Origin: an uncultured Candidatus Saccharibacteria bacterium
GTDB taxonomy: Bacteria; Patescibacteriota; Doudnabacteria; UBA920
Direction: 5' to 3'
DNA: 64,000 bases
Assembly: GCA_964416765.1 (NCBI GenBank)
Contig: CAYQEU010000001.1
Span: 1,675 to 65,674, forward strand
Of the stretch, positions 1 through 19,810 are shown in pieces. The notes under the pieces are model-generated. The model made no database searches. It worked only from the letters and a program-made list of their open reading frames with translations, and was not told the DNA's origin. Made by a program: the position numbers and the translations under genes. Position 1 is the first letter of the stretch; each line of letters begins with the position of its first letter.

Positions 1-3000
1 GAAGTACTAACATTGGTAGCAGTGGCACCGGAGATATCTTATTAGGTGGTGGCAGCGGCTCTACCGGATGTACCGTGGTTAACTCTTCTGGAGCACTGGC
101 ATGTTCTGCTAGCGGCGACTTTGGTAATTACTTATCGGTTGCACAATCCGGAGCAACCACTACGGCCGGAGTGTTGCGAGTAACCACTTCTACTTCAACT
201 GATTTTGCCCCGGGTATTAAAAACCAGTACACAGAAACATCCACAGGATCACTTACCGGTGTGTATGGCATGCAAAACTTCTTGTCCTCATCCGCCACTG
301 TTACTGGAGCGAGCGTAGGACAGAATTTGTACGGCTTCTATAACAGCGTTTCCAAGAGCGGAGCTGATACCGCCACTGGCACTTACAATATTTATGGTAA
401 CTATAATGCCGTTGATAACACAGGTCGTACCAACGTTGGTACTGTTAACACTTACGCTGGATACTTCAATGCCTTTGGTGACACCGCCGGCACTTCCCAG
501 GCCATTGGTCTGTATGCCACGGCCAGCGGCGCTGACAATAACTATGCCGCTCTCTTTGACCAGGGTAGCGTTGGTATTGGCACACTTACTCCACGGCGCA
601 AGCTGGACGTGCTTGATGCCTCCAACCCCCAGCTTCGTTTAACCTACACCGACAACTCTGTTTATACAGACCTGCAAACGACCTCTTCCGGAAACCTATA
701 TATTAATCCAACGGGTGGCGGAGTCGGTATTGGCATAAGCTCACCAGGAGCGGTACTTGCCGTTGAAGATGGCACTTCTTCCGACCAATTTCGTATTGGC
801 GACCAAAGCGGTGGTAACTATTACAAAATCGGGCGCAATACCAGCACGGGCTTCTTAGATTTTACAGGTACTCAAAGCGGCTTCCGGGGTTATCTATTTA
901 ACAACCCAGACAACAATTTTTATGTGACTAATGCCACAGGAAGCAATAGGATTAAATCATCCACCGGCACAGCGGCTGCAGTAGCAGGTATTGAATTAAA
1001 TAACTCCTCTCGTGGTTACTCTTGGTATATCGATAACCGCGGGTCAATAGATAGCCCAAATGACCGTTTCGGGATCTTTAATAACGCAGGCACTGAAGTC
1101 ATCACAGCCCTAAGCGGCGGGAATATCGGTATCGGTACCAATAATCCAGGCAAGAAGCTCAGTGTAATTAAGGCCGACAACGCCACAGACGAAATTGCCC
1201 AGTTCTACGCTAATAACCTCACTCAAGGTATCGGCATAACCTACGCAACTATAAGTGCTATTGGCTCTAACACAGACCAAGGTATAAATATTGTCCCTAA
1301 GGGCGCTTTTGGAGTCGGCGTAGGAACCACCACAGTGGCTACCAATAACATGTTCTCCGTTAATGGTTCAGCCACTATTGGTGCCGGGTCATATAACGTA
1401 GCTGCTCCAACCAGCGGTTTGTTGGTCTCCGGCGGTGTCGGTATCGGCACTAACGGTCCTGACCGCAAGTTGGACGTACTTGATGCCTCCAGCCCACAAC
1501 TGCGCTTAACCACGACCGATGGTACGGTTTATGGAGATTTCCAGAATACTGCTAATGCCAATGCCATTCTTACAGGTAACACTTTAGCCTCCTCTTCTGC
1601 CATTCAATACGGTCTCCAGGTAGTTCCAACAGTCAACCAAACTTCTACGGCTGGTTATACTGCCCTGGACGTTAACGTCACTGAAACTGGGGTAACCAAC
1701 GGGCCAAACTTATTGGCTGACTTCCGCGTGGGTAACAGTGAAAAGCTGTCGGTACGCAACGATGGTTCCTTGACCTTGCATGGTAACTCCAACATTATCA
1801 CTCCTTTTGGTGGCTTCGGCAGCTTCTCTAACTACCTTGTCCGCAGCGAAGACTTTACCACTACATGGTCAGTATCAAGCGTAACTGCTCCTACGGCAGA
1901 TACTCAGGTTGCCCCTGACGGTAGCACTACCGCAGAAAGCCTTGCTACGAGCGGCTCCGGCGGTTCTGTTACCCAAGATACCTCAACTGCCATTTCCAGT
2001 ACCACTTACACCTTTAGCGTTTGGGCCCGGTCAGCCAGCGGCACCCAAAACTTTGGTTTGAGAATCGACGGCACCTCCTCCGGGACTGGTGCAGAAAAGA
2101 CTTATACTGCCACAACAAGCTGGCAAAGGTTCTACGTTACCCAGGCGGTCGGCAGCTTTACCGGAAACGTTCGGGTAAAGATCTTCCCTGGCACCTCTTC
2201 GGGTACCGGCACCATTTATGCTTGGGGCGCTCAGTTAGACAACGCATCAGTTCCTTCCCAGTATGCTAAGACCACTACGGCCGCGATTAATAACCCAAGC
2301 AACAGGGGATTGCTGGTTAACACCAACCTTACCAATACTGTTTCCAGCGGCTTCCTTTACGGTGAACGCCACATTAGCACCATTAACTCCACTACCGCCG
2401 GCACTCACGTTGGCCAGTTCATCCGAACTATAGACAATACTTCACTGGATTCGGGCCAGGTCGTGCGTGCCCTTGAAGTTCAGGCGTTCTCCGGAAGCAA
2501 CGTCAACGGCACAAATACAGGTATTGCAACCTTTGGCTACACGTTTGGTATCCAGGCCACTACTACCGCCCAAGCGGCTTCCCAAGCCGCCCCGGCAGCC
2601 ATCTTCGCTGACCTTGATAACGGTACTGACTCTACTACTAAGGCCCGTGGTAATGCCATCCGCGCTTACACCAACGATGCCACTTCGGCCACCCTGGTCC
2701 AGTTCTACCAAGAAACCTCGGCCTACACAGGCACTGGTTTACAAATGGATTTCGGCAACAACTCCGGCTCCTTCAACGGCAATTACGCGGACTTCCTCTA
2801 CCAGGGATCCAGTAAGTTCCAGATTGCCTACAGCAGTTCCACCGGCAAGCTTACTCAAACCTACGGAGCCACTGGCAGCATCATTGACTACGCCAGCGCC
2901 ACTAACGGCAACACCTTTGTCGCCAAGATCCCGCAGAAGGCAACTAGTGGTACTTGTGCATCCGCTGCAGCTGAAGGGTTCATTTACCAGAATTCCGGAG

Positions 3001-4370
3001 GTACTCAGGTTGGACACATTTGTATTGATGGCCCGTCCTCCGGCACTCCAAACAAGCTCCGCTTCTACGCCGAACAGTTCAACGCCACCTCCACTGACGT
3101 TGCAGAAAACTATTCCGATGCCACTAATTCCCTACAGCCAGGCGACTTGGTAATGCTCGACGCTTCTACTAAATATGGCGTAACTAAGGCAAATATTGGC
3201 ACCGGAAACCCGGTAATCGGTGTGGTCTCCACCTCACCTGGTATTGTCCTGACCGGTATTAGCGAGTCTGACCACAGCAGCGAATTGGTCAATCCAAAAC
3301 CAATTGCTCTGTCCGGGCGTGTCCCAGTTAAGGTATCCAATGAGAACGGCGCCATTAAGACCGGTGACTTCCTGACTGCTTCCTCAACTCCGGGTGTTGC
3401 CATGAAGGCAACCAAAGCCGGCCCCGTTATTGGCCAAGCCCTGGCAGACTTCAACGGTACTACCGGCACCATTGTGGTGTTCATTAAGGCCACTAACTAC
3501 AACGGCGCTGATATTCAGAATGAAATGCCAGGCCTGACCTTCCGCTATGCTGACCCAGTCCAGGCTGCCAACACTTCCTACGATATCCTCGGCCACCTCA
3601 TGGCCCAGCTACCGAACCTCAACCCAAATAACCTGTCCCAGGTTCATACCGATGTGGTTGTCGCGCGGGCTGAAGTAATCACCCCGACTGTTACCACCCA
3701 CACGCTGCGTACCGATTTGTTGTCCGCCGCGACTGCCCAAGGGGGATTGTCGGTCGCGTCGACAACCGTGTTCAACGGCGGGTTGAAGGTGGACTCAATT
3801 GGCTCCATCGGAACGATGCTGTCCATCCAGAGCGATGTCGAATTCTTTGGTATCCCGTACTTCACCAGCGATACCGCCGGGTTCGCCCTCATTAAGAGTG
3901 GAGTTCAAAGTGTGGACGTGGAATTTACCCACCCCTATGTGGCCCAGCCGATCATCAACGCGACTATCAGTTTCGAACAGGACATCAACCCTGACCTGAT
4001 CAATGACCCGAATGCCCAAGAGTCACTGAAGAACGCTGCCATAACTGATACCCAGGCATTCCTGCAGGCGGGGATTAGCTACGCCATTACCAACAAGAGC
4101 GCGCGTGGGTTTACGATTGTCCTCAATAAGCCAGCCCCAAGTGACATTAAGTTCAGCTGGATTTCCTTAGCCGTTCGGAACGCCATTACCTTCACTTCCA
4201 AAGATGCGCCCCAGCAAAGCCAGGCTACTCCTCCGGCTGACGGCCAGGCAGGTGGCGACACTACTACTCCGCCGGCAGGGGATGGCAGCGTTAGCGGTTC
4301 AGACCAGGGAGCAGACAGCACCACACCGCCTACCTCATCTTCTGATAATGGCAATGACTCCTCATCATAA
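1..4370 (+). CDS. Giant secreted surface protein, 5'-truncated by the window edge (at least 1431 aa). It has repeated GxGIGT..P..KL.V and 'RKLDVLDAS.PQLRL' motifs of the tail-fibre-domain kind, and a C-terminal Pro/Thr/Ser/Asp-rich low-complexity tail.
   Basis: The frame is open from nt 3 with no stop before 4370. Motifs occur at least four times (GSVGIGTLTPRRKLDVLDASNPQLRLTYTD, GGVGIGISSPGAVLAVEDG, GNIGIGTNNPGKKLSV, GGVGIGTNGPDRKLDVLDASSPQLRLTTTD). Thr/Ser/Gly/Asn content is very high. All overlapping minus-strand and frame-shifted ORFs look like low-complexity artifacts. Confidence 0.8.
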   Translation, partial: STNIGSSGTGDILLGGGSGSTGCTVVNSSGALACSASGDFGNYLSVAQSGATTTAGVLRVTTSTSTDFAPGIKNQYTETSTGSLTGVYGMQNFLSSSATVTGASVGQNLYGFYNSVSKSGADTATGTYNIYGNYNAVDNTGRTNVGTVNTYAGYFNAFGDTAGTSQAIGLYATASGADNNYAALFDQGSVGIGTLTPRRKLDVLDASNPQLRLTYTDNSVYTDLQTTSSGNLYINPTGGGVGIGISSPGAVLAVEDGTSSDQFRIGDQSGGNYYKIGRNTSTGFLDFTGTQSGFRGYLFNNPDNNFYVTNATGSNRIKSSTGTAAAVAGIELNNSSRGYSWYIDNRGSIDSPNDRFGIFNNAGTEVITALSGGNIGIGTNNPGKKLSVIKADNATDEIAQFYANNLTQGIGITYATISAIGSNTDQGINIVPKGAFGVGVGTTTVATNNMFSVNGSATIGAGSYNVAAPTSGLLVSGGVGIGTNGPDRKLDVLDASSPQLRLTTTDGTVYGDFQNTANANAILTGNTLASSSAIQYGLQVVPTVNQTSTAGYTALDVNVTETGVTNGPNLLADFRVGNSEKLSVRNDGSLTLHGNSNIITPFGGFGSFSNYLVRSEDFTTTWSVSSVTAPTADTQVAPDGSTTAESLATSGSGGSVTQDTSTAISSTTYTFSVWARSASGTQNFGLRIDGTSSGTGAEKTYTATTSWQRFYVTQAVGSFTGNVRVKIFPGTSSGTGTIYAWGAQLDNASVPSQYAKTTTAAINNPSNRGLLVNTNLTNTVSSGFLYGERHISTINSTTAGTHVGQFIRTIDNTSLDSGQVVRALEVQAFSGSNVNGTNTGIATFGYTFGIQATTTAQAASQAAPAAIFADLDNGTDSTTKARGNAIRAYTNDATSATLVQFYQETSAYTGTGLQMDFGNNSGSFNGNYADFLYQGSSKFQIAYSSSTGKLTQTYGATGSIIDYASATNGNTFVAKIPQKATSGTCASAAAEGFIYQNSGGTQVGHICIDGPSSGTPNKLRFYAEQFNATSTDVAENYSDATNSLQPGDLVMLDASTKYGVTKANIGTGNPVIGVVSTSPGIVLTGISESDHSSELVNPKPIALSGRVPVKVSNENGAIKTGDFLTASSTPGVAMKATKAGPVIGQALADFNGTTGTIVVFIKATNYNGADIQNEMPGLTFRYADPVQAANTSYDILGHLMAQLPNLNPNNLSQVHTDVVVARAEVITPTVTTHTLRTDLLSAATAQGGLSVASTTVFNGGLKVDSIGSIGTMLSIQSDVEFFGIPYFTSDTAGFALIKSGVQSVDVEFTHPYVAQPIINATISFEQDINPDLINDPNAQESLKNAAITDTQAFLQAGISYAITNKSARGFTIVLNKPAPSDIKFSWISLAVRNAITFTSKDAPQQSQATPPADGQAGGDTTTPPAGDGSVSGSDQGADSTTPPTSSSDNGNDSSS

Positions 4371-4404
4371 CTTTTATTAACTTAACAAAAGTTAACAAAA
4401 TGAC

Positions 4405-4433
4405 TTGCAAAAATTTTCCAATTGTGCTATAAT
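4405..4433 (+). promoter_or_regulatory. Sigma70-type promoter for giant gene 2: TTGCAA, 17-nt spacer, extended -10 TGcTATAAT.
   Basis: TTGCAA at 4405-4410, TATAAT at 4428-4433 with TGc immediately upstream. Inverted repeat GTTAGC-N7-GCTAAC at 4452-4470 lies in the 5' UTR, and the ATG at 4489 has an A-rich leader. Confidence 0.6.
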
Positions 4434-4488
4434 ATAAGTAATAAAGTGCTTGTTAGCCAAAATAGCTAACATCTGAAACAAAAAACAA

Positions 4489-7400
4489 ATGAATATCAGC
4501 ATAGGAAAAGTCAGGCCAGGCTTTGGTACCAGAAAAACCTTCACTTTAGTGGGCGTTTTTCTGTTTTGTGCTTTGCTGGTATTCAATGGTTTTTTCCCCT
4601 CCAGCGGTGGAATTAAAAAAGCTCATGCGGCCCCGGTAACGATCACATTTTACTCGGATGATTACTGGCAGGTTCCTGCCGGTGTGACTTCCGTAACTAT
4701 TGATGCATGGGGCGGCGGCGGCGGCGGTAATTCCATCGGCCAAGGCGGTTACGGCGGAGGCGGCGGCGGTTACGCGCATGGTACTGTTAGCGTTACCCCT
4801 GGAAATTACTATGACATTATAGTCGGCCAAGGAGGGGTGGCGGGAGAAAAAAATGGCGGCGCGGGCGGCCCCACATATTTTGGTGGTGGTGACGTGGGTG
4901 CTACTGGCGGCGATGGCGGCCAGAGTGGTATTGGACCCGGAGTGGGGGGCAATATTTTTGCCGGTGATTTTGGGTACTCAGGCGGCCAAGGCGGTTACGG
5001 CGACCAATTCTTTTCCTTGTTAGGCGGCGGCGGTGGCGGTGGTGCTGGATCTTCCGGCGCCGGCAGTACCGGTGACGATGGTATAAATGGAGGTGCTGGA
5101 GGCGCCGGCGGCCCGTCTGAAGGCGGCCAAGGCGGTCACGGCGGCGACAGCAGAAGTGATGGCGAGCCGGGCTACAGCATAGGCGGGGGCGGTGGCGGTA
5201 GCGGAGATGGCTCCTTCCCGGGAGATGGGGCAGCTGGTCAACTTTGGGTTACCTATATTCCTCCTTTAATTTGTACTTCAATCACAAGCGGCTCTGGCAA
5301 CTGGAATAGCGCCAGCACTTGGACCAATTGTGGCGGCGGCACACCCGGCTCTAATGACACCGCGGTTATTGAGGGCACCGCGCAAATCACGGTCACTGCC
5401 AGCACCACGGTAAATAACTTACAGTTTGGTGACAATTCGACACCCGCGACAAACGCGGTGCTTAAAGTTAATAGTGGCCAAACTTTAACAGTTTCCAACA
5501 CCACTACAGTTTTCAGTGCCTCTAACAATAATGTCCAAGCCACCATCCAGGATGGTACCGGTAGCGGGACGGTATCCGGTGTTTATTTGGATATAGGATC
5601 ACCCGTAATTCCTGGTACAGGATCCCACGAAACTAAATTGATATCTTCAATTTCCAATTTTTCTCTGGCGGGAAGCACAACCATGCATGGGTATTCCGGT
5701 GTTTCAAGAGACAACGACCCAACTCTGGAAATACCTTCTGGTACTATGACGACTACCAGCCTAACTACAACTTTATCTGCTTCGTGGGTGACTGCTACTA
5801 TTTCAATGAACACGGGTGCCCAGACGGGAACCCTTAAACTGACCAGTAACCCCGCATGGTCCATAAGCGGTACAGGTACCACCAATCTGAACTTAGCAGG
5901 GACGGGCAACACGGTGGAGTATTCGGGCACAAATGCTTCCATACTCAACACGACTTACAAGAACCTCAAAGTAAGCGGTGCCCTGGGTACGACGGCACAG
6001 ACCGCTACTGTTGCAGGAGCCTTCACTGTTACGGGCAGCGGTAGCATGTCTCCAAGCTCGGGAACCATGACGTTTAACAACGGGGCTTCAATAAATAATT
6101 CCGGTACCCTTAATTTCTATAATCTATCAACTTCGGTATTTTCTTCCGTTAGCTCGAGCGGTAGCTTCGGGGTAGCTTCAGGCGGCACGTTTACCATTGG
6201 GGGAGCGAGCACGTTTACCCCGGCAGCAGGCGATGTTATTACCGGTACCTCTGCTACTATTACCGGAAGCGGCACGGCCAAGGTCACCCGTACCGCGGCG
6301 ACCGCTGATTTTAATACTCAATACAATTTTGGCACTAAGACCCTGACTAACTTAACCGTGGACTACGCGGGCAGCGGGCAATCGTTGAGCAATCTCACAT
6401 ACGGTGGACTAAAAGTGAGCGGATCCATTACGGGCGCCACCGCTACTGCAACTGTGGGCACTAACTTTAATGTTACGGGCACCTTCACGCCCAGCGCCGG
6501 CACGATTACCATGAGCGGCACGAGTTCCATTACGAATTCAGGCACACTTACGTTCATTAACTTAATCATCAATACTTTGGCGTCAGTGACCGGCAACACT
6601 AGCTTTGGTGTTTCAGGCACCTTTACGGAAAATTCTGGGGCCAGTTTCGCCGCGGCTTCAGGCACGCAAACATTTAACAACGGTTCGAGCATAGTAAAAA
6701 ACAGCACCCAGCTGCTTCAGTTTAATAATCTAACGGTGGCGGCATCTGGCACCATAACCGCTAACGTGGACATGAGCATTAATAGCGCCGTAACCGTACT
6801 TTCTTCCGGCACGTGGAATGCCACGGCGGGCACGGTTACCATGATGGATGGGTCATCAATTTCAAACGCGGGAACCCTGTCCTTCCAAAACCTGACCATA
6901 GGGGCAGGGGGGACAACTAATGTCACCGCCAACGCTAGCTACACTGTTAAGGGGGGTTGGACAATAAGTTCGAACGCTACGCTATCCTCCAGCTCCGGTA
7001 CAGTAACCTTAACCGCTTCTGGAACGCCTTTTGTCATGAGTGGCTCATTTTCCCCGTCAGGAACTAATACGGTTAAGTACGCGTCCAGCACGGGCGCTAC
7101 AGTGACCAGCAACATAAGTTACCAAAATCTCGACATTTCTCCCAGCAGCGGAACTCCGACTTTTTCGGTTGGCTTCTCCAATCTTAGCGTGGGGGGTGAT
7201 CTTACTCTAACAGGAACAGTCGCGACAACCTTCAATTTGAATAATATCGCATCTTACCTGGATGTTAACGGAAACGTGAGCATCAACTCTGGGAATACCT
7301 TGGTGGCTCCGCCGAGCTCCGCGATTTTCTATATTGGCGGGAATTATACCAATTCGGGGACATTGAACAACAATGTTGGAACCATTCAGTTTGACGCCGG

Positions 7401-10400
7401 TACTACCGGTAAAACCATAACTACCAATAACCAGTTTTTCAACAATTTAGTTTTCAATAACGCCTCGGGCGGTTGGACTTATACTCCAACCCTGTACATG
7501 TCCGGGACTTTGACTGTTACCGCTGGCACACTGTCCGGTACCGGTAACGTGGAGACCGATGGGGGCAACACCACGGGGAATGGAACAATCAACATAACTG
7601 GCGGAACCTTTTCGCAGTATGCCGGGGGCAGCTTTGGTGGCAATACCAACTGGACCTTTAATGACATCCAGTTCGGGGATGATATTTCCGAAATGCATGC
7701 CACCGGAACCGGAACCATAACAGCCCGCTCTATTAGCTCGCTTTATGAGTGGCACGCCGGCAGCAAGACTTGGATTATTACGGGTACCGGCACTCCGCTT
7801 ACCAACAACGGTACGTTTTTTGGTGAGAATAGCACATTCCAGTTTACAGGCAGCACTGTTACGGTACCGGTGTTCGCATATAATAACCTAACCTTGGGGG
7901 GGAGCGGGACTTACACCATGCCGGCCTCAACCCTTACGCTCACTGGAAACCTGACCGTGACCAACGGGGCGACGGTGACAAAGGGAGCAGGAACTGTAGT
8001 GTTCGGGGGATCCACGCCTCAGACCATAACTGACAACAGTGGTACCAAACAGGACTTAGGGGCTCTTCAAGTCTCCAACACTACGCAGCCGTGGTGCAAC
8101 ATTTCTTCCACAGTATGTAATTCTTCCTGGCTGAACCGACGCAAGATTACTTTTAATAACAGCGCTTCTTCCGCGAACCTTACCAACTTCCCGGTTTTGG
8201 TTCAGCTGACTTCCGCCAACATCGACTACAACAAGACCAAAGCCAACGGCGCGGACCTTCGTTTCGTTGATGCTGATGGCACTACAGCCTTGAGTTATCA
8301 GATTGAAACCTGGAATACATCGGGAACATCCAACATATGGGTGAGGGTACCTCAGGTTAATAACACCACGACCGACTATATCTACATGTACTATAACAAC
8401 ACTGGGGCGGTAGATAGCCAGGCGGCCACCAGTGTGTGGGACTCAAACTTCAAGGGAGTGTGGCATCTCCCGGATGGTGGTACTCTTTCCACTGCGGATT
8501 CCACGAGCAACGCTAATAACGGGACTAATCAGGGAAGTACCATTGCCGCTGCAGGCAAGATTGGTGGGGGAGCGAACTTCATCAATAGCGGCAGCGACCT
8601 CGCGATTTCCAATATCTCCGTTAGCGGGGTTGCTTATACCATCAGCACCTGGTTTAATACTCCTTTTGGTAATGCCGGCAGCTACACTACCTTAACCCGT
8701 GGCGCCGCTGGTGACCACCAGGTCTTAATAGACCCGAGTAATATTCTGGGGGTATTTGATTCCAGCACCGGTTTCTATAGCTCAGGGTTTAATGTCACGT
8801 CTCTTTCCAGCGGCTGGCATCACTTAACCGCGTCAGCTACCGGCAGTACTACAACTTTCTATATCGATGGGGTAAGTGTTGGTTCTTCCTTATTTAAATC
8901 CAATACCAACATTAGTTACTTGGGTAACTGTGGCGTGTGTTCTGGCCAACGGTGGGGTTTGGCTGACGAAATGCGCGTTTCCACCGGCATTGCCCGCGAT
9001 GCTAACTGGGCCAAGGCGGACTACCTTTCCGAAAGCAACCAGATGAATACTTTTGGAAGTGAAGAATCCTCCACTGCGGTCGGGGTTGCATTGGGTTCTT
9101 CCATTAAAGCTACATCGGTAACAGTGGATGCTACTCGAGTTCTCAGCGCCAACGGCTCTAATACCCTAACTCTGGTAGGAAACGGCGCATCGGTGTTCGT
9201 GGTAAATGGCACGTTTGTCCCTTCTACCGGCACGGTTGATTTTAGCTCAGCAAGCACAACAGGAACTACTGTACCGGGCACGACTTTTTATAACCTCACC
9301 TTAAACAAAGCTTCCAATAACTTTACCTCCGGCGGTTCCATGACCGTAGGCGGTACGTTGACCATTAGTGCCGGCACCTTTACCGCACCTTCAGGCACTC
9401 TGACATTGAACGGGGACTTAGTTAATAGTGGCACCTTTACTCACAACAGCGGCACGGTAGTATTCGCCCCGACCAATGCCTCACTAAGTTCCACAATTTC
9501 AGGTAGTTCAAACATCACATTTAACAATGTCAGTGATACAACTCCCGGTTCCAGCATAATTTTCAAAAATGGGAGTACGTTCATTTTCTCCGGCACCCTA
9601 ACCGCCACGGGCACGGCGCAAAACGCGGTTTGGTTGAAGAGCGCTTCCCCAGGATCACAATGGACCGTTACTTTTAGCTCGACCCCTAGCCTTACAAACG
9701 TATCCGTGCAAGACGGTGCTTGTAATGGCGGGTTAACTTTGGCGCAAAACCCTTCCCTGCATAATGAAGGACGCAATGGTTCCTGCTGGGGCTTTATAAT
9801 CTACACTGGCGGCGGCGGTGCTTCTGACGGTGGTTCTGGCAACACCGGCGGCGAATCCGGCGGCGGCGGCGGAAGCGGCGGCGGTACAACCATTTCATTT
9901 ACTTCAAGCGGCTCTTGGACCGCGCCTGAGGGCGTAACTTCTGTTATTGTGGAAGCCTGGGGCGGCGGGGCCGGTGCCGGCAGGGGTACTACCATAGGTG
10001 GTTCTGGCGGCGGCGGCGGAGCGTATTCTAAGAAAAATTCTATCAGTGTAACCGCAGGTACTACATACACCGTAACTGTTGGCACTGGCGGAGCAGGGTC
10101 CACGGGGGGCAATGCCCAGGCGGGCGGTGACTCCTGGTTCTCTACTTCCGGTACTATACTGGCTAAGGGAGGCACGGCTGGAGCAGATAATGGCGGAGCT
10201 GTTGGAACCGGGGGCGCGGCGGGAAGCGGTATTGGTGATGTTAAATTCTCTGGAGCCAACGGAGGGACGGGTTCCAGTATCATAGGCGGAGGCGGTGGTG
10301 GAGGAGGGGGAGCTGGAACCGGCACTAATGGTAATCCAGGGGACGATGGTGTTTCTGGCGGCGGCGGCGGCAAGGGCGGCGCACTAAATGGCGGCGCTGG

Positions 10401-11244
10401 CGGTGATGGTCAATTCGGTAGCACGGGAGGTGCTGGATCAGTCCGCGCCGGCGGCGGCGGTGGTGGACAAGGCGCGGGCAGTAACGGCGGCGCAGGAGCC
10501 CGTGGTGAGATTCGGATAACCTACACAGTCAGTGGCGGCTCGGGCGGAAGCTCAACGAGTGGAAATACAACTACATTTACTTCAACTGGCTCATGGACTG
10601 CGCCAGCAGGCGTAACCTCGGTTACCGTTGAAGCCTGGGGCGCGGGCGGTTCTTCAGCCAGTGGTTCCTCGGGCGGTGCCGGACGGGGCGGTGGCGGAGG
10701 AGGAGCATATTCGTCCGCTACTATTACCGTTACTCCTGGTAACCAGTATACGGTAACGGTTGGTACTGGCGGTGCTGGACGGTCATGCTGTAGTGTTTTG
10801 GGACAAGCTGGGGGAGATTCCTGGTTCGGAACTACCGGCACATTGTTGGCAAAAGGTGGCTCCGGCGGAGACTTTTCCGGTACTGGCGCCTCAGGCGGCG
10901 CTGCGGCAGCCGGTGTAGGAACAATTAAGTTCTCTGGCGGTGCCGGCGGAAACAGCGCTGACAACACAGCGTCCTTTGGTGGCGGTGGCGGTGGCGGAGC
11001 CGGTACAACCGCCAACGGCGGTAACGGCGGCAATTCTTCCGGTGTAAATACCGTAGGAGCTGCGGGAACAGGCGGCTCCCTTAACGGCGGTAATGGCGGA
11101 ATTGGCGGAACCGGGGCCGGTTCAGTAAGAGGCGGCGGCGGCGGAGGGGCAAATGGCGCAACCGACTCTGTTGCTGGCGGTCGTGGTGAAGTTAGGATTA
11201 CCATCAATGCCACCCAAGGCGGCGGCGGTGGGGGATCCCCATAA
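4489..11244 (+). CDS. Giant secreted/surface protein (2251 aa). It has an N-terminal signal/anchor, three copies of an extremely glycine-rich domain, many PATR-like Ser/Thr/Gly beta-strand repeats, and a central DUF2341-like plus LamG/concanavalin-like module.
   Basis: N-terminal hydrophobic segment RKTFTLVGVFLFCALLVF. Gly-rich domain consensus 'W.APAGVTSV.VEAWGGGG...GGGGGAYS...ITVTPG..YTVTVGTGG' occurs at about 4650-5260, 9886-10512 and 10567-11217. The DUF2341-like signature LRFVDADGTTALSYQIETWNTSGTSNIWVRVPQV...IYMYYNN is followed by a lectin-like beta-sandwich region. There are dozens of SGT/TGT-rich roughly 20-aa beta-solenoid repeats. Confidence 0.85.
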   Translation: MNISIGKVRPGFGTRKTFTLVGVFLFCALLVFNGFFPSSGGIKKAHAAPVTITFYSDDYWQVPAGVTSVTIDAWGGGGGGNSIGQGGYGGGGGGYAHGTVSVTPGNYYDIIVGQGGVAGEKNGGAGGPTYFGGGDVGATGGDGGQSGIGPGVGGNIFAGDFGYSGGQGGYGDQFFSLLGGGGGGGAGSSGAGSTGDDGINGGAGGAGGPSEGGQGGHGGDSRSDGEPGYSIGGGGGGSGDGSFPGDGAAGQLWVTYIPPLICTSITSGSGNWNSASTWTNCGGGTPGSNDTAVIEGTAQITVTASTTVNNLQFGDNSTPATNAVLKVNSGQTLTVSNTTTVFSASNNNVQATIQDGTGSGTVSGVYLDIGSPVIPGTGSHETKLISSISNFSLAGSTTMHGYSGVSRDNDPTLEIPSGTMTTTSLTTTLSASWVTATISMNTGAQTGTLKLTSNPAWSISGTGTTNLNLAGTGNTVEYSGTNASILNTTYKNLKVSGALGTTAQTATVAGAFTVTGSGSMSPSSGTMTFNNGASINNSGTLNFYNLSTSVFSSVSSSGSFGVASGGTFTIGGASTFTPAAGDVITGTSATITGSGTAKVTRTAATADFNTQYNFGTKTLTNLTVDYAGSGQSLSNLTYGGLKVSGSITGATATATVGTNFNVTGTFTPSAGTITMSGTSSITNSGTLTFINLIINTLASVTGNTSFGVSGTFTENSGASFAAASGTQTFNNGSSIVKNSTQLLQFNNLTVAASGTITANVDMSINSAVTVLSSGTWNATAGTVTMMDGSSISNAGTLSFQNLTIGAGGTTNVTANASYTVKGGWTISSNATLSSSSGTVTLTASGTPFVMSGSFSPSGTNTVKYASSTGATVTSNISYQNLDISPSSGTPTFSVGFSNLSVGGDLTLTGTVATTFNLNNIASYLDVNGNVSINSGNTLVAPPSSAIFYIGGNYTNSGTLNNNVGTIQFDAGTTGKTITTNNQFFNNLVFNNASGGWTYTPTLYMSGTLTVTAGTLSGTGNVETDGGNTTGNGTINITGGTFSQYAGGSFGGNTNWTFNDIQFGDDISEMHATGTGTITARSISSLYEWHAGSKTWIITGTGTPLTNNGTFFGENSTFQFTGSTVTVPVFAYNNLTLGGSGTYTMPASTLTLTGNLTVTNGATVTKGAGTVVFGGSTPQTITDNSGTKQDLGALQVSNTTQPWCNISSTVCNSSWLNRRKITFNNSASSANLTNFPVLVQLTSANIDYNKTKANGADLRFVDADGTTALSYQIETWNTSGTSNIWVRVPQVNNTTTDYIYMYYNNTGAVDSQAATSVWDSNFKGVWHLPDGGTLSTADSTSNANNGTNQGSTIAAAGKIGGGANFINSGSDLAISNISVSGVAYTISTWFNTPFGNAGSYTTLTRGAAGDHQVLIDPSNILGVFDSSTGFYSSGFNVTSLSSGWHHLTASATGSTTTFYIDGVSVGSSLFKSNTNISYLGNCGVCSGQRWGLADEMRVSTGIARDANWAKADYLSESNQMNTFGSEESSTAVGVALGSSIKATSVTVDATRVLSANGSNTLTLVGNGASVFVVNGTFVPSTGTVDFSSASTTGTTVPGTTFYNLTLNKASNNFTSGGSMTVGGTLTISAGTFTAPSGTLTLNGDLVNSGTFTHNSGTVVFAPTNASLSSTISGSSNITFNNVSDTTPGSSIIFKNGSTFIFSGTLTATGTAQNAVWLKSASPGSQWTVTFSSTPSLTNVSVQDGACNGGLTLAQNPSLHNEGRNGSCWGFIIYTGGGGASDGGSGNTGGESGGGGGSGGGTTISFTSSGSWTAPEGVTSVIVEAWGGGAGAGRGTTIGGSGGGGGAYSKKNSISVTAGTTYTVTVGTGGAGSTGGNAQAGGDSWFSTSGTILAKGGTAGADNGGAVGTGGAAGSGIGDVKFSGANGGTGSSIIGGGGGGGGGAGTGTNGNPGDDGVSGGGGGKGGALNGGAGGDGQFGSTGGAGSVRAGGGGGGQGAGSNGGAGARGEIRITYTVSGGSGGSSTSGNTTTFTSTGSWTAPAGVTSVTVEAWGAGGSSASGSSGGAGRGGGGGGAYSSATITVTPGNQYTVTVGTGGAGRSCCSVLGQAGGDSWFGTTGTLLAKGGSGGDFSGTGASGGAAAAGVGTIKFSGGAGGNSADNTASFGGGGGGGAGTTANGGNGGNSSGVNTVGAAGTGGSLNGGNGGIGGTGAGSVRGGGGGGANGATDSVAGGRGEVRITINATQGGGGGGSP
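9886..11217 (+). repeat. Intragenic tandem duplication (two copies of about 630 nt, at 9886-10512 and 10567-11217) encoding the glycine-rich domain. A third, more diverged copy lies at about 4650-5260.
   Basis: DNA- and protein-level similarity is visible, e.g. TSSGSWTAPEGVTSVIVEAWGGGAG versus TSTGSWTAPAGVTSVTVEAWGAGGS, and both copies end ...RGE(I/V)RIT. Confidence 0.8.
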
Positions 11245-11260
11245 CCTGTATAATGAAAAT

Positions 11261-11803
11261 ATGCTAGACGTAAAGCACAACGTAAACAATTCCAATAATA
11301 TACCCAGTTCACCCAAGCTCAGTCACGGGCTGAAGGTGAGAACGGTACGTCCAAACCCCACTACCCCAAAGTGGGTTTGGATTGTATTAGGAGCACTTGC
11401 TCTAGCGCTCGTAATATTAGGTATCTTATTCTGGCGGTCTCAGCATCAAGTAAATGAGTTACGGGACAGTTTGGACAGCAAAGTAAACGCTACAAAGATT
11501 GCTGAAGAAAACAAGGCTTTATTGGATAGGGTAGGGGCAGTCATTATCCTGCCCGACGATGAAACCCCAACCATCGCGACGGTAAGCGATTTAGATAAGC
11601 TTAAAGGACAGCCGTTTTTCGCTAAAGCGGAGCTTGGCGATAAGGTTTTAATATACGCCAAAGCCAAAAAAGCCATTTTATACCGACCTTCCACCAACAA
11701 AATAGTGGAATTGGCGCCTTTAACCGATAGCGGCGATCCAGGCACAATTTCCAACTCCAACGCAAGCTCTAACTTGGCCCCCGCAAACCAGGCCAGCCAA
11801 TAA
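11261..11803 (+). CDS. Hypothetical membrane-anchored protein (about 180 aa, single N-terminal TM).
   Basis: ATG at 11261 is the first in-frame Met after the giant gene stop; the ORF-track start at 11153 overlaps the giant gene. TM helix WVWIVLGALALALVILGILFW. Confidence 0.55.
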   Translation: MLDVKHNVNNSNNIPSSPKLSHGLKVRTVRPNPTTPKWVWIVLGALALALVILGILFWRSQHQVNELRDSLDSKVNATKIAEENKALLDRVGAVIILPDDETPTIATVSDLDKLKGQPFFAKAELGDKVLIYAKAKKAILYRPSTNKIVELAPLTDSGDPGTISNSNASSNLAPANQASQ

Positions 11804-11804
11804 T

Positions 11805-12986
11805 ATGCTAGCCAAACAGCCCTGGACACATCACCACGCGCACCGATTGTTCCATATTTCACTGGGGCTTTGCTTCGCGTTTATACTGGTCACAATTCTC
11901 ATGGGGCTCATGGTCGTGTGGCTCGGCCACGCGGATCCGCCGCCTGTTAGCCACGACGTATCGATTACCGCTACCGTTGCCGGTATAACTCCTGGACCCA
12001 TTGATAACGGGGGAGGCCCAGCTCCGGTACCGCCAAATCAAAACCCTACCATTACGATTGTGGCCGAGCCACAAGGGGTCATACCGCAGACCGGGGGAGT
12101 GTATGTTTTTGTGGACCGCATCCCGGCTTTTTCCGGGCATACTTCGGTTCCCGGCGGATTGATATTTATTTCGATTGCCGGACCACAGGTGCTTAACAGC
12201 AGTGCTATCGCTGATGGCCAGGGAAATTGGTATTGGCAGTCGCCGGCCAAGCTGGATTTGGGAAGCTACGCCATAACTGCCACGGTTTACAATCGCAATG
12301 ATTTTTCCAAGAGCGGCCACGTCACGGCGAATTTTGCCGTGGAAACCAATTTGCAAACAAACCAGCCGAATAACGGCAACCAAGGAACCCCAGGCAATAA
12401 TGGCCAGCCGGGCAAACCTGGCACCGGCCGTCCCGGCACTGGGGGAATCACCCTTCCTCCGGCACCAGGGACCTCGCGGCTGTTCGGTGTATTTTTTAAA
12501 GTTTTGCCCGAATATGAGCGGGTGCTGGCGGGGAACAAGGTTGTAGGTCAGCTCACGTTGGTTAATAAACTGAGCAATCAGGAAACGAACCAGGAAATCA
12601 GTTACAAAATCAGCGGGCCTGACGGCAAGGTGGTCATGGAATCCCAGGACAATATCACTTACAGCAAGGTCGCCAACTTCCTAAAAACTTTTTATACCGC
12701 CCCGGCAACGGCCCCAGGACGATACACTATAGTGGTTACGACATCATACAACGGTATTATTTCCACAGCGTCCGATACTTTCAATTTAGAGCAAGTATTC
12801 CCGGCAGCCCCGACCCAAAGGGAAATTAACGGTCCGGTTATTTTGTGGGGAGGCCTGGCAGGACTGCTCATGCTGTTCCTGTTCCTAGTCCTGGTGGCCT
12901 ATTACCAGGTACGACTGGTGAGCCGGCACATTAGGGAACACAACGAAAAATACCATAAAGAAGATGAAAATACACCGCCCCAATAG
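11805..12986 (+). CDS. Hypothetical membrane protein (393 aa) with N- and C-terminal TM segments and a short collagen-like Gly-X-Y stretch.
   Basis: Start is 1 nt after the upstream stop. TM segments ISLGLCFAFILVTILMGLMVVWL and VILWGGLAGLLMLFLFLVLVAYY. GNQGTPGNNGQPGKPGTGRPGTGG at about 12375-12450. Confidence 0.55.
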   Translation: MLAKQPWTHHHAHRLFHISLGLCFAFILVTILMGLMVVWLGHADPPPVSHDVSITATVAGITPGPIDNGGGPAPVPPNQNPTITIVAEPQGVIPQTGGVYVFVDRIPAFSGHTSVPGGLIFISIAGPQVLNSSAIADGQGNWYWQSPAKLDLGSYAITATVYNRNDFSKSGHVTANFAVETNLQTNQPNNGNQGTPGNNGQPGKPGTGRPGTGGITLPPAPGTSRLFGVFFKVLPEYERVLAGNKVVGQLTLVNKLSNQETNQEISYKISGPDGKVVMESQDNITYSKVANFLKTFYTAPATAPGRYTIVVTTSYNGIISTASDTFNLEQVFPAAPTQREINGPVILWGGLAGLLMLFLFLVLVAYYQVRLVSRHIREHNEKYHKEDENTPPQ

Positions 12987-16940: not shown

Positions 16941-16969
16941 AAAAAAACCACCTAATCGGTGGTTTTTTT
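16941..16969. terminator. Bidirectional intrinsic terminator AAAAAAACCACC-TAATC-GGTGGTTTTTTT.
   Basis: Perfect stem flanked by an A-run and a T-run. It serves the plus-strand gene ending at 16920 and the minus-strand sodC, whose stop codon (TAG, 16952-16954) lies in the loop. Confidence 0.8.
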
Positions 16970-17467
16970 GATAATTCCGCAGGCGATGCGCGGACCTCCG
17001 CTTATGCCGGAGCCGTGTTCACCGCCTTGGTAAGGGTCGGGATTTCCGTGAATCATGAGGGAAGTACCTTCCCCGGCGAGGATGGAAGCGGCGCCATCGG
17101 AAAGGGTTACACGCGTGGTAATGGCTTCCAGGGTTCCCTTACCCTCTGAGCCGATTTCTATATTGGGTAAGTCACCAGCGTGGAAGGGATGGTTAACGTC
17201 GGGGTCGGAGTTTCCTGCCGGACCTGGATCAAAATGGCCGCCAGCGCATTTAAAGCTGTCGCCGCAATCCGCCTTTTCATGGATGTGGACGGCATGCATG
17301 CCTGGCTTCAACTTTTCCGGGTCGCCTTCCAATTGCAGGATAAGTTTAACCAGAGTTTGGGTACCGAATTGGTACTCCGTGAATACGGCATTCCCTTTGA
17401 TCCCGTCGCCTTCCAGCAATGCTTCGGCTTTCATGATTTCTTTAGGTTCGGATGAAAATAGTTCCAT
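16952..17467 (-). CDS. sodC: Cu/Zn superoxide dismutase (SodC family), apparently cytoplasmic with no signal peptide.
   Basis: HAVHIHE, GGHFDP, HPFHAGDLPN, LMIHGNPD and GGPRIACGII metal-ligand and fold motifs are present. The start is uncertain: ATGs at 17524, 17467 and 17434 are all in frame, and 17467 leaves a 17-nt gap to the upstream gene. Confidence 0.85.
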   Translation of the reverse strand: MELFSSEPKEIMKAEALLEGDGIKGNAVFTEYQFGTQTLVKLILQLEGDPEKLKPGMHAVHIHEKADCGDSFKCAGGHFDPGPAGNSDPDVNHPFHAGDLPNIEIGSEGKGTLEAITTRVTLSDGAASILAGEGTSLMIHGNPDPYQGGEHGSGISGGPRIACGIIKKTTD

Positions 17468-17484
17468 AGTTTTTGTGATGTTAA

Positions 17485-17985
17485 TTACCAGGCGCAGGAA
17501 GTGGGATCGCTGCACGCCATCCATGCCGTGGTCGGACGGACGGGATCATAAAATAGTTCAGTAGAAGAGGGGAACGTTTCCGGCCCCACGTCGCTTAAAA
17601 TCAATTTATATCTCAGGCCATCGGATTTGTAGTTATAGCCGGACCATCCTGTGGTTACGCCCAACGGGTCGGTGGGTAAGGTGCTCAAGTAAGTTGGTGT
17701 CAGGCCAGGAATGTATGCGTTGACACCGCTTGTAGTATGTCCACCACCGTTGGCGGAAGTGCCCCACCATTGGCTGCTGGTGCTTGGATATCCGTAGTTG
17801 GCGGTGTAGTAATTTTCCAACGCGGTTTTTAGTTGGGTTAAGTCTGCCTTGCGCTTAGTATCTCGTGAGGTTTTTCTTGCGCTGGCCAGTGAGGCAACCA
17901 TAATGCTGGCCAGTAACCCGATGATGCCAATTACCACCATCAACTCAATCAAACTAAAACCCTTTTGTCTCTTAAGTGTTATCAT
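17485..17985 (-). CDS. Type IV pilin-like protein (prepilin-type N-terminal cleavage/methylation domain).
   Basis: N-terminus MITLKRQKGFSLIELMVVIGIIGLLASI with a class III signal (G|FSLIE). The C-terminal region is globular and Cys-containing. Confidence 0.85.
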   Translation of the reverse strand: MITLKRQKGFSLIELMVVIGIIGLLASIMVASLASARKTSRDTKRKADLTQLKTALENYYTANYGYPSTSSQWWGTSANGGGHTTSGVNAYIPGLTPTYLSTLPTDPLGVTTGWSGYNYKSDGLRYKLILSDVGPETFPSSTELFYDPVRPTTAWMACSDPTSCAW

Positions 17986-18266
17986 GGGTTTTTCTCCAGC
18001 TTCGGGGGCTCACCGGGCGTATTGGTCATGTGGTAGCCAGCCGGGGGAGTGTAGTTAGCGGGGTTAGTCGTGGTTTTGGTGTATTCACGAATGAAATAAC
18101 CTAGTGCAGCCAGTGACGCAATGACAAATATGATAGCACCTGCCATTTTTAGGGTCGGATGCGCTGATTCAACTCGTTTAGGCGCTGGAGCTTGTTTGTT
18201 ATTTTGGTTTCCGGGGAAGAAACCACTGAAATCAACACCTTCTTCACTTTTGGGGTTTTGGGCCAT
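17982..18266 (-). CDS. Small membrane protein (94 aa) with an N-terminal EEGVDFSGFF motif. It pairs with the pilin gene (ATGA overlap) and is a paralog of 27583..27867.
   Basis: Single TM segment AGAIIFVIASLAALGYFI, and a 4-nt overlap with the downstream pilin start. Confidence 0.6.
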   Translation of the reverse strand: MAQNPKSEEGVDFSGFFPGNQNNKQAPAPKRVESAHPTLKMAGAIIFVIASLAALGYFIREYTKTTTNPANYTPPAGYHMTNTPGEPPKLEKNP

Positions 18267-18313
18267 AGTACTTTTATTTTAGCACAAAAGCCCAGCTGTT
18301 CACTAAACGCTTA

Positions 18314-18958
18314 TTACTTTTCCACCACAATCATGGCGGAATCCCGGATTTTTGCGTTTAGGTGAATGCCGGAGGAATAGTCCTGCATGGCCCGTTCAAA
18401 TATGCTCTCGCTCGCGCGCCGATAGGCACCAGTCATGGGGTCATGGAAGATTATTTCGCCATTGTCATGCCCCACGACCACCACTGTGTGGCGGGTGGTG
18501 AAGCTGTTGTACAGCCTTGTGCTGAGCACACGGGGGTTTAAGGGGGTAATGACCAGGCTTCCATTATCCAGCTGCGCCTTGATGTCCTGAACGGTGACAT
18601 TGTGCACTACTCTTAACCCATGGTATCCATAATACTGCACCATTAAATTTGCCGTATCCTGGGCCGAGGTATCCTGGTAAAATCCGTGAAAGAATTTTTC
18701 GTAATCAGACATGCCCACTATTTCATCTCGCGCTTGTTCTTTTGACATTGGGTTCCCACTTTCCCACATTACCGCCATGAGAATGCTTGCTTCTTCGCAG
18801 CCGTCGCTTTGTCGCGGATCACTCCATTGGCCCAGAGGCGCCTGGCTGGTGTAAGGAACGGCCAGAGTTGCCGCGAGCGATGGATGCGCAAAAACAAATA
18901 TTCCGGCCAACGCCAGAAATACTCCCACTCCTTGTTTTAGTGTGTTTGTTTTAATCAT
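18314..18958 (-). CDS. Secreted peptidase_C39-like (papain-fold Cys/His) domain protein.
   Basis: Signal peptide. The candidate catalytic Cys sits in SDGCEEASILMA and the His in HTVVVVGHD, in the order and spacing typical of C39-like domains. Confidence 0.55.
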   Translation of the reverse strand: MIKTNTLKQGVGVFLALAGIFVFAHPSLAATLAVPYTSQAPLGQWSDPRQSDGCEEASILMAVMWESGNPMSKEQARDEIVGMSDYEKFFHGFYQDTSAQDTANLMVQYYGYHGLRVVHNVTVQDIKAQLDNGSLVITPLNPRVLSTRLYNSFTTRHTVVVVGHDNGEIIFHDPMTGAYRRASESIFERAMQDYSSGIHLNAKIRDSAMIVVEK

Positions 18959-19000
18959 TGGGTAAAAAAATCGGGCGCTTTTTGGGCGCCCGATTGATAG

Positions 19001-19810
19001 TTATTTAATCCAGATCTTCAGGGCGGTTAATACGTGGAGTATATTGTCCCAAATCCCGAAAACCCTTACTTTAGTTCCCACAGTTACATCAGAAGTAGTG
19101 GCAGTGCCGCCATTTTGGCTGACTACCTGGGTGTTAGAGTTGGTTGCCACAGTGGCACTAGCGCCATTCTTTGCCTGGACCGTCAGGTCAGAACCGGCAA
19201 CTGCGGTGACCACACCTTTGTCAGATGCAAATGCCTTGTTTACCGGCATATCGTATACGAAGTTGGCAGTTAAAGTGGATCCAGACAATGTTCCGTTTAC
19301 AGTAACTTTGTCGCCTACCTGGATGTTTGTGTTGGTAATGGCAGTGTTGGGCACGCTTATTATAGTGGCGCCCGAATCAACAACGGTTAGGGTTCCATTA
19401 TGCTTGGTCGTGAAGGTAAAACCGGTGCTTGAGGTACCAGTAACAGTTCCGGTGTAGAACAAAGTGAACATATTGCCAAAACCGAACCCATGGTCTCCAC
19501 GATGGGAATCACCGTCGTGGTCGCCATCTTTGTTATTGTCACGGTTTGTATTCTTATTGTTATCTTGTTTAGGGTCGGTCTTGGAGTTGTCCCGCTCCCC
19601 AAAAACATGGACACCATATTGGCTGTAAGTGCTTGAATTTGCAGATACATTGCCGCGATCGGTGTTAGCTTTCGCGTTTACGTCAGTAGAGGCTTTAACC
19701 TGGAAAGAGTGCCCGGAGGTAAGTCCGTGGGCCGCCGCAACTCCTGGTACCATAACAGCCACAATACCCAGGGCCGCCACCAACATAGAAAGTTTTTGGA
19801 TAAGTTTCAT
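19001..19810 (-). CDS. Secreted hypothetical protein with an Asp/Asn/Lys-rich linker and a C-terminal Thr/Val-rich beta-strand repeat domain, possibly DUF5666-like.
   Basis: Signal peptide MKLIQKLSMLVAALGIVAVMVPGVAAA. Repeated G.V..V.G...TV... segments. Confidence 0.55.
   Translation of the reverse strand: MKLIQKLSMLVAALGIVAVMVPGVAAAHGLTSGHSFQVKASTDVNAKANTDRGNVSANSSTYSQYGVHVFGERDNSKTDPKQDNNKNTNRDNNKDGDHDGDSHRGDHGFGFGNMFTLFYTGTVTGTSSTGFTFTTKHNGTLTVVDSGATIISVPNTAITNTNIQVGDKVTVNGTLSGSTLTANFVYDMPVNKAFASDKGVVTAVAGSDLTVQAKNGASATVATNSNTQVVSQNGGTATTSDVTVGTKVRVFGIWDNILHVLTALKIWIK

Follow-up and report, generated by a model that had tools for sequence, protein, structure and literature searches.

The first 11,244 bases of the 64,000-nucleotide stretch of DNA analysed here (the window) are filled, as the initial annotation of this sequence had proposed, by two consecutive giant open reading frames (ORFs) that run in the same direction, ORF1 and then ORF2 (Table 1). 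ORF2 is complete, with the 2251 amino acids (aa) originally given, and an NCBI contig of 681,337 bp encodes an identical protein. ORF1 is indeed truncated at its 5′ end: its reading frame runs without interruption from base 3 up to the stop codon at 4370 and comprises 1455 codons, while the minimum length of 1431 aa reported at first counts from the first GTG. The Logan contig L001, which shows 0 mismatches across the 21,244 bases shared with the window, adds 287 nt and brings ORF1 to at least 1551 aa, and the ORF1 orthologue of a sister strain (strain B, see below) reaches at least 2232 aa and also runs off its contig. Therefore, the complete gene probably encodes about 2450 aa or more. Each of the ORF1-bearing contigs recovered as L001 to L007 breaks within ORF1, while L008 breaks in the ORF1–ORF2 spacer; such breaks inside ORF1 would fit strain-level heterogeneity of its cassettes, or internal repeats that disrupt assembly. 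Because all the recovered ORF1 contigs end within the gene, ORF1 is probably under-reported in metagenome-assembled genomes (MAGs). Together, the two genes are estimated to account for 2% or more of a genome about 0.7 Mb in size (at least 2450 plus 2251 aa, set against the 681 kb contig).

The products of both genes are rich in Ser, Thr, Gly and Asn, as had been pointed out: these residues make up 43.9% of ORF1 and 55.7% of ORF2, compared with 24.8% in 12 other proteins of the window. The accompanying statement that the two proteins consist almost entirely of repeats did not hold. Tandem Repeats Finder detected only trivial GGC-type runs in the DNA; the single internal repeat of ORF1 is a 51-aa motif present in two copies, and ORF2 contains few, divergent repeats. 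The bias of both giants is compositional and modular, not tandem-repetitive.

Domain architecture of ORF1 and ORF2

The C-terminal 532 aa of ORF1 form a conserved module that matches 12,951 cluster representatives and, among the best matches listed, occupies a C-terminal or nearly C-terminal position in proteins as long as about 4300 aa. An AlphaFold2 model covering window aa 465–1455 of ORF1 was compared with the PDB using Foldseek. The top match was 3suc, the pre-mature form of the phage phi29 pre-neck appendage protein gp12 (E 1.4e-5 over 212 columns, with low TM-scores because the match is local), followed by modules of the type 4 carbohydrate-binding family (CBM4-2) and then by weaker matches to H-type lectins. 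Foldseek gave no coordinates, so that the pairing of each match with one confidently modelled island of ORF1 is inferred; on this basis, the 3suc match would belong to the beta domain at 3096–3494. In the BFVD database, the best named match was a ‘Preneck appendage protein’ (E 9e-11, TM-score 0.68), followed by tail-fibre proteins. The suggestion of tail-fibre likeness made in the initial annotation is thus borne out at the level of the model.

Sequence comparison with relatives of ORF1 points to the same family. Relative P0202 exceeds the cut-off of PF11962 (Peptidase_G2) over its residues 1103–1172 (37.5 bits), as does P0183 (25.7 bits), and residues 1100–1263 of ORF1 (in the numbering of L001, i.e. 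window aa + 96) align with residues 1104–1256 of P0202 with E 3e-22, which is the PF11962 stretch. In the D-x-A-E motif that opens the domain, D, A and E are invariant in an alignment of 27 ORF1 relatives (A2, used for the invariance counts), and D and E are invariant in 80/80 viral homologues from IMG/VR, where the gp12-type chaperone-like domain is encoded in at least 352 viral loci. This D and E may be the equivalents of the catalytic acidic pair of gp12. By analogy, ORF1 might cleave itself in its C-terminal part after assembly of a trimer. Other relatives of ORF1 (P0185, P0235) bear a Peptidase_S74 domain, above the Pfam cut-off, in place of the G2-type domain.

A second island of the model, the beta-sandwich close to the C-terminus, is possibly H-type-lectin-like: matches to the Helix agglutinins 2ce6 and 4q56, SLL-2 and discoidin II (E about 8e-3 to 1.6e-2) would fall on it, and relative P0202 gives an H_lectin score of 18.2 bits, under the cut-off of 24, in the region aligned with ORF1. 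The third is a jelly roll upstream of the conserved module. Window aa 609–761 match the NCBIfam model GTA_spike_fiber (NF048003; GTA, gene transfer agent) with 74–80 bits (cut-off 36) over 171 of 182 profile positions, which indicates membership of the domain family only and not of a GTA, and the Foldseek matches to the CBM4-2 structures 2y6j and 2y6k (E about 1e-4) are presumably located here. It should be noted that scans of full-length sequences with hidden Markov models under-report domains in long proteins of biased composition, so that negatives obtained in this way need care. The full-length Pfam scan of ORF1 returned no match; likewise, a full-length hmmscan of the 2232-aa protein of strain B (L006:2–6697) missed GTA_spike_fiber, which scored 79 bits on a 260-aa sub-segment (L006:4019–4798).

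The two copies of the 51-aa motif of ORF1, hereafter the junction motif, contain a 74-nt direct repeat of the DNA (597–670 and 1464–1537). Many copies of this motif are found in relatives of ORF1, and its GIGT..P..KLDV pattern is also present in those of the Peptidase_S74 type. Complete relatives are 1500–2700 aa long, and most of the 14 whose N-termini were read carry Sec signal peptides, with a mature N-terminus AIPKxINFQGKLT common to most of those that bear one. Their C-termini are of low complexity and without an anchor.

Table 1. Location of ORF1, ORF2 and their recognizable parts, and of the two genes that follow them.
Feature	Position in window	Strand	Remarks
ORF1	3–4370	+	3′ part (1455 codons) of the gene of a giant tail-spike-like, predicted secreted protein; 5′ end outside the window
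Junction motif, copy 1 (..VGIGTLTPRRKLDVLDASNPQLRLTYTD..)	552–704	+	51-aa internal repeat, 61% identical to copy 2
Junction motif, copy 2	1419–1571	+	with copy 1, flanks the ~270-aa module missing in strain B
CBM4-like jelly roll (NCBIfam GTA_spike_fiber)	1827–2285	+	NF048003; weak CBM_4_9; AlphaFold2 pLDDT (predicted local distance difference test) 66–84
Conserved C-terminal module, ~530 aa	2766–4367	+	94–95% identical in strains with unrelated upstream ORF1 sequence
Intramolecular-chaperone-like beta domain (phi29 gp12/Peptidase_G2 type)	3096–3494	+	starts with D-V-A-E (3096–3107); pLDDT 72–91
C-terminal beta-sandwich, possibly H-type-lectin-like	3852–4184	+	pLDDT 76–92
Low-complexity Pro/Ser/Asp/Gly tail of ORF1	~4200–4367	+	follows the beta-sandwich
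ORF1–ORF2 spacer and 5′ leader, 118 nt	4371–4488	+	unusually conserved
Putative sigma-70-type promoter of ORF2, extended −10 (TTGCAA-17-TGcTATAAT)	4405–4433	+	10/12 match plus TG
ORF2	4489–11244	+	complete, 2251 aa; DUF2341/LamG/Gly-rich giant protein
Predicted N-terminal signal peptide or signal anchor	4489–4629	+	basic n-region, 20-aa hydrophobic core, A-H-A/A-P
Gly_rich_2 domain 1 (aa 59–256)	4663–5256	+	PF21722, 48.6 bits (cut-off 24.3)
Thr/Ser/Gly/Asn-rich shaft (aa ~251–1200)	5239–8088	+	divergent repeats of ~125–150 aa
DUF2341 domain (aa 1253–1317)	8245–8439	+	PF10102, 54.6–58.4 bits (cut-off 23.4)
LamG/ConA-like lectin domain (aa 1369–1480)	8593–8928	+	PF13385, 32.6 bits (cut-off 27.6)
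Second beta-helix (aa ~1529–1769)	9073–9795	+	pLDDT 87–95, regular strand ladder
Gly_rich_2 domains 2 and 3 (aa 1808–2012, 2031–2238)	9910–11202	+	PF21722, 50.8 and 28.6 bits
C-terminal tail Q-G-G-G-G-G-G-S-P-stop	11215–11244	+	invariant in family alignment A1
Small single-pass membrane protein ‘g198’	11261–11803	+	start inferred
393-aa protein	11805–12986	+	hydrophobic segments at N- and C-terminal ends

The only hydrophobic segment of ORF2 spans aa 14–42 (Kyte–Doolittle windows of 19 residues starting at aa 14–24 score at least 1.6), with predicted cleavage within A-H-A/A-P. The long shaft that follows the first Gly_rich_2 domain shows internal repeats at aa 475–857, and no Pfam family was found in the Thr/Ser/Gly/Asn-rich stretches of the protein. 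The structural model of ORF2 covers aa 1100–2030 (mean pLDDT 64.7) and includes the end of the shaft, aa 1120–1200, as a confident stack of beta-strands (pLDDT 77–91); the whole shaft is probably beta-helical, by extension from this modelled end. The shaft leads to a core composed of a DUF2341 domain, with many invariant columns in family alignment A1, and a LamG domain (PF13385, Laminin_G_3), which was found on a sub-segment and missed by the full-length scan. For the LamG region, the Foldseek matches include the arabinan-binding domain 4 of AbnA (5hon_A, TM-score 0.65, E 2e-5), lectin domains of trans-sialidases, NTNH/BoNT Hc and the lectin module of the streptococcal minor pilin PilC. Both families, LamG and DUF2341, had been guessed in the initial annotation, and both score above their Pfam cut-offs in ORF2. 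The second beta-helix closes with an NNGSCWGF cap, kept across the ORF2 family, and is followed by Gly_rich_2 domains 2 and 3, which are 56% identical to each other.

The protein ends with the tail Q-G6-S-P, found in 20 of 120 hits of the ORF2 search and in 0 of 240 control proteins, as well as in Doudnabacteria and other Patescibacteria loci. The family form of the tail is Q-G6-[AS]-[ST]-P, with no transmembrane helix after it (loci L010–L013, L015, L036, L050 and L084). To the best of our knowledge, no known sorting signal matches a Q-G6-S-P end of this kind. Neither an LPXTG motif nor a C-terminal transmembrane anchor is present in ORF1 (ending in ..DNGNDSSS) or ORF2 (ending in ..QGGGGGGSP), and anchoring by sortase (LPXTG) or by a CTERM signal was rejected, given that neither protein has a C-terminal hydrophobic segment. 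Of the signal and anchor sequences previously attributed to the pair, the N-terminal segment of ORF2 is therefore confirmed and C-terminal anchors are absent from both proteins, the N-terminus of ORF1 lying outside the window. The reading of ORF2 as a type IV (minor) pilin was also discarded: the prepilin leader G/FTL[IL]E is replaced by ..RKTFTLVGVF.. in ORF2, with Thr at −1 and Gly at +5, and by ..YKYKNLALAG.. in its relatives. Finally, the absence of enzymatic motifs claimed for the two proteins holds in so far as no catalytic family was found, but not for the autoprocessing-type, Peptidase_G2-like domain of ORF1 with its invariant Asp and Glu.

Conservation and variation of the locus

Two groups of sister contigs, strain A (L002–L005) and strain B (L006–L008), have the same gene order as the window and were used for comparison. 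ORF2 is 92.3–92.5% identical between strains, has a length of 2250–2252 aa and a dN/dS ratio (non-synonymous to synonymous substitution rate) of about 0.04, while the neighbouring genes are 86–100% identical with dN/dS of 0–0.18. The first 750 aa of ORF2 are 79–91% identical, its most divergent part being Gly_rich_2 domain 1 (79–85%); the LamG domain lies in the best-conserved stretch, and the DUF2341/LamG core is 96–99% identical in strain A and 93–99% in strain B. ORF2 is not hypervariable and is under purifying selection.

The picture for ORF1 is different. Strain-B ORF1 is 86–100% identical to that of the window, apart from one missing module of about 270 aa (residues ~300–580 in L001 numbering), which is flanked by the direct repeat and on either side of which identity is 92–100%. 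Strain A has in common with the window only the last ~525 aa of ORF1, at 95% identity; the 678 aa upstream are unrelated to the window sequence and are built of modules found in other members of the family. Three contigs from different JGI samples agree exactly in the sequence of this junction. ORF1 is therefore mosaic between strains. The hypervariability for which the initial annotation had recommended a search does not exist in ORF2. For the C-terminal part of ORF1 and for ORF2, dN/dS is 0.03–0.04, and dS is about 1.15–1.2, i.e. near saturation, compared with 0.06–0.9 for most neighbours (L004, L006); either an origin of these alleles earlier than that of the flanks or an exchange between lineages may explain the difference. 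A role of ORF1 or ORF2 as target of a diversity-generating retroelement was considered and rejected: no long near-identical repeat pair involving either gene was found in the 64 kb, the search for a reverse transcriptase not being systematic.

The spacer between the two genes shows 95.8–96.6% nucleotide identity between strains, as against 81–83% for the flanking coding DNA. It contains the promoter sequence and the 55-nt leader before the ATG of ORF2 that were recognized from the outset. Across the region, promoter-like sites are no more frequent than expected (14, against 10.1 ± 3.5 by chance). Neither hexamer varies in strains A and B, and extended −10 promoters precede the ORF2-like genes of three other species (L010, L013 and L009). 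The promoter is thus plausible, on the strength of its position and conservation and not of the match itself. A hairpin in the leader (GTTAGC-N7-GCTAAC) is not significant (z = −1.06), and the spacer and leader gave no Rfam match.

The nearest relatives of both giants are found in MAGs of Candidatus Saccharibacteria and other Patescibacteria, consistent with the earlier view of giant, non-catalytic exported proteins of a genome of the candidate phyla radiation (CPR) type. An ORF1-like gene directly upstream of an ORF2-like gene occurs in six loci from other Saccharibacteria MAGs (L009–L014), at 37–57% identity. In other species, different domains stand in place of the N- and C-terminal modules of ORF2, one of them a sandwich interrupted by a HINT domain. 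It had been suggested that synteny conserved across the lineage, with no sign of diversification, would speak for ordinary surface-layer (S-layer) or cell-wall proteins; synteny is indeed conserved in these six loci, but diversification is evident, both in the mosaic ORF1 and in the swapped terminal modules of ORF2.

Immediately downstream of ORF2 lies g198. Its start was called at 11207, in an alternate frame of the poly-Gly tail of ORF2, and this call is probably wrong. A g198-like gene is found 200–300 nt past a giant DUF2341/LamG gene in 7 of the 77 loci fetched (L010, L011, L012, L017, L019, L020 and L061, including MAGs labelled Levyibacteria and Gammaproteobacteria, so that several lineages of phylum rank are represented), and downstream of the pair in three of the six paired loci (L010, L011 and L012). 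The g198 family has 2925 hits and is unnamed, with a LytR_C domain in some members; the named relatives among the best 120 matches are from Patescibacteria or an unclassified ‘bacterium’. A specific tie between the G6-S-P tail and g198 was rejected: the tailed loci L015, L036, L050 and L084 have no such neighbour in the fetched sequence, and the giants of L017, L019 and L020, which end in another tail, do have one. The 393-aa protein encoded next matches neither a Pfam nor an NCBIfam family. Downstream of ORF2-like genes, a relative of it is found in L011 and in L015, a Doudnabacteria locus; its link to the giant pair is weak.

The remaining recognizable neighbours in the window are cellular. 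They include an ATP-binding cassette (ABC) transporter, a two-component system, an extracytoplasmic function (ECF) sigma factor, DUF5666 and DUF5667 proteins, a pilin-like protein, a Cu/Zn superoxide dismutase, UvrA, UvrC, DnaK, RNase J, glutamate dehydrogenase and two tRNAs, the latter being the only Rfam matches. The 10 downstream ORFs and the 10 largest remaining ones were scanned and included no phage gene for structure, packaging or integration, the sequence 5′ of ORF1 being outside the window. The context of ORF1 and ORF2 is chromosomal and not that of a prophage.

Two other places in the window deserve mention. A cluster of small envelope-type genes lies on the minus strand at 16952–19810, 6–8 kb downstream of the giants, and comprises the Cu/Zn superoxide dismutase, the pilin-like (N_methyl) protein, a Peptidase_C39_2 protein and a DUF5666 protein. 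The last two rank with the more variable genes in the strain comparison (86–92% identity). At 33815–36382, another large and possibly exported protein is encoded; it has 855 aa and DUF5122 beta-propeller repeats, and its gene contains a 74-nt direct repeat (35876 and 36170).

Possible function of the gene pair

We consider it fairly probable that both proteins are exported by the Sec route and form non-catalytic, beta-rich fibres on the surface of a Saccharibacteria-type (CPR) cell, fibres that would bind polysaccharides and serve most likely for adhesion to another cell. That this other cell may be the host is suggested by domain content and by the literature: large DUF2341 proteins of Patescibacteria have been proposed to be adhesins that evolve by domain reshuffling (PMC11809585), and glycan-binding envelope proteins are essential for the epibiotic growth of a Saccharibacterium (PMC10633639).

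ORF1 could be seen as the cellular counterpart of the tail spike or fibre of a phage, with a long shaft of exchangeable modules joined by the conserved junction motif of about 50 aa, a CBM4-like jelly roll and, towards the C-terminus, the gp12-type chaperone-like domain, a helix and the possibly H-type-lectin-like sandwich. The C-terminal module would nucleate the folding of a trimer and then perhaps cleave itself off, by analogy with phage fibres, whose C-terminal intramolecular chaperones fold the trimer and are then removed (PMC4690869), while the upstream modules would be exchanged by recombination between strains. ORF2, presumably transcribed from its own conserved promoter, would be the conserved, lectin-bearing partner of ORF1, made of a signal peptide or anchor, Gly-rich domains, two beta-helical shafts around the DUF2341 and LamG lectin core and the G6-S-P end.

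The closest known system for ORF1 is the phi29 appendage gp12, of which 3SUC is the beta-stranded chaperone domain (PMC4690869). The likeness consists in the top structural match, in the place of the domain in the C-terminal part of a long beta-rich protein, in the invariant Asp and Glu at its start and in the relatives that reach the Peptidase_G2 cut-off in the aligned stretch; in phage-fibre chaperones, too, the conserved part stands downstream of variable sequence (PMC4690869). In contrast to gp12, ORF1 is below every Pfam cut-off, is encoded on a cellular chromosome, has complete relatives with Sec signal peptides and continues for about 290 residues after the chaperone-like domain, including the possibly lectin-like one. 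The fibres with Peptidase_S74, such as the endosialidases and pb1 of phage T5, share the logic of variable receptor-binding sequence followed by a conserved C-terminal folding module, but ORF1 has a G2-type domain and no Ser-Lys motif was seen in it. With the GTA head spike fibre (NF048003) and CBM4 proteins, ORF1 shares one domain of CBM4-2-like fold, and nothing else of either GTA or glycoside hydrolase. ORF2 has DUF2341 and LamG in common with the giant DUF2341/FhaB proteins of Patescibacteria (PMC11809585), so that the proposal of adhesion and reshuffling applies equally to it, and its relatives in Saccharibacteria MAGs are named ‘DUF2341 domain-containing protein’ at NCBI. However, it has 2251 aa and not more than 4000, lacks an FhaB domain, and possesses three Gly_rich_2 domains, a fixed G6-S-P end and a tail-spike-like partner gene. 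SEML1_0890 and SEML1_0891 of Southlakia epibionticum (PMC10633639), compared here by description only, are from the same phylum, have the same predicted location and contain lectin-like domains proposed to bind host glycans, but differ in having VCBS, FN3 and dockerin domains.

Several observations weigh against the adhesion reading. ORF1 itself remains below the PF11962 cut-off in both full-length and sub-segment scans and has no Pfam H_lectin (PF09458) match; searches of PDB sequences with ORF1, with ORF2 and with an ORF1 profile returned no match, which for ORF1 counts on the same side. The ORF1 model has a mean pLDDT of 54.5 with three confident islands only, and its Foldseek TM-scores are local and low. 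A phi29-like cleavage would remove the lectin-like end domain, which fits poorly with a role of this domain in binding. The N-terminus of ORF1, and hence its signal peptide, is in no contig found, a cell anchor was identified for neither protein, and the attribution of the organism to Saccharibacteria derives solely from the relatives of these two genes. In addition, the strong conservation of ORF2 and its promoter would be just as much in keeping with a structural envelope protein.

The last point leads to the main rival explanation, namely that the two are structural envelope proteins (an S-layer or cell coat) or glycan scavengers, serving cell integrity or nutrient capture and not host recognition. 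A syntenic ORF2 of conserved length under strong purifying selection, a nearly invariant promoter and leader compatible with high constitutive expression, and a gene pair conserved across species are what such proteins might show, and CBM and lectin modules also occur in proteins for polysaccharide foraging. Nevertheless, no SLH or other S-layer domain was found in the Pfam and NCBIfam scans, even if S-layer proteins are diverse; the replacement of ORF1 cassettes between near-identical strains is a trait of receptor-binding or antigenic proteins more often than of proteins that form a lattice; and the CBMs occur without a glycoside hydrolase domain. We regard a structural coat or glycan foraging as a possible but rather unlikely explanation.

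Two further alternatives appear very improbable. The GTA head-spike-fibre domain, the gp12-type domain shared with the IMG/VR viral loci and the phage proteins among the best structural matches could indicate that ORF1, or both proteins, belong to a phage or derive from one, as a prophage tail fibre, a tailocin or a GTA component. Against this stand the 20 ORFs scanned, which include no phage genes, and recognizable neighbours that are all chromosomal housekeeping or regulatory genes; moreover, most inspected family members have Sec signal peptides, absent from phage fibres, which are assembled in the cytoplasm, the gene order is kept in the six other Saccharibacteria MAG loci and the flanking genes are kept in the sister strains. 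Equally improbable is a role as delivery scaffolds of polymorphic toxins or contact-dependent effectors. It would account for the PT-HINT/intein-like domains (PF07591/PF14890) near the C-terminus of the ORF2 relatives P0002, P0003 and P0009, and some toxin-delivery proteins have a similar giant beta-helical architecture. Yet ORF2 has neither a HINT nor a toxin domain, and the HINT domain of the relatives is inserted into a C-terminal beta-sandwich, which is unbroken in P0010, and is followed not by a toxin but only by the remainder of the sandwich and the G6-S-P tail; likewise, the downstream gene encodes a conserved membrane protein found beside many giants and not a variable immunity protein.

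Annotations of CPR genomes already include giant DUF2341 proteins and ‘tail fiber domain-containing’ proteins, and the ORF1 C-terminal module belongs to a very large family. In contrast, we found no description of the conserved gene pairing, of the swapping of cassettes at junction repeats among strains, of the G6-S-P tail or of the recurrent small membrane-protein neighbour. A more speculative proposal, which we consider distinctly unlikely as a whole, is that ORF1, ORF2 and the small membrane protein make up a dedicated surface-fibre system of Patescibacteria, in which a phage-derived, self-chaperoning ORF1 would swap its distal modules and Q-G6-S-P would act as a new sorting or attachment tag. 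If this were true, recombination at the junction motifs of ORF1 would set which host the epibiont binds.

As far as we know, little is understood about host recognition and attachment by CPR epibionts beyond type IV pili. The locus provides testable candidates for this attachment, an ORF1 resembling the receptor-binding proteins of phages and an ORF2 with a lectin core. If host range depends on the modules of ORF1, their swapping would resemble the way in which host range evolves in phages.

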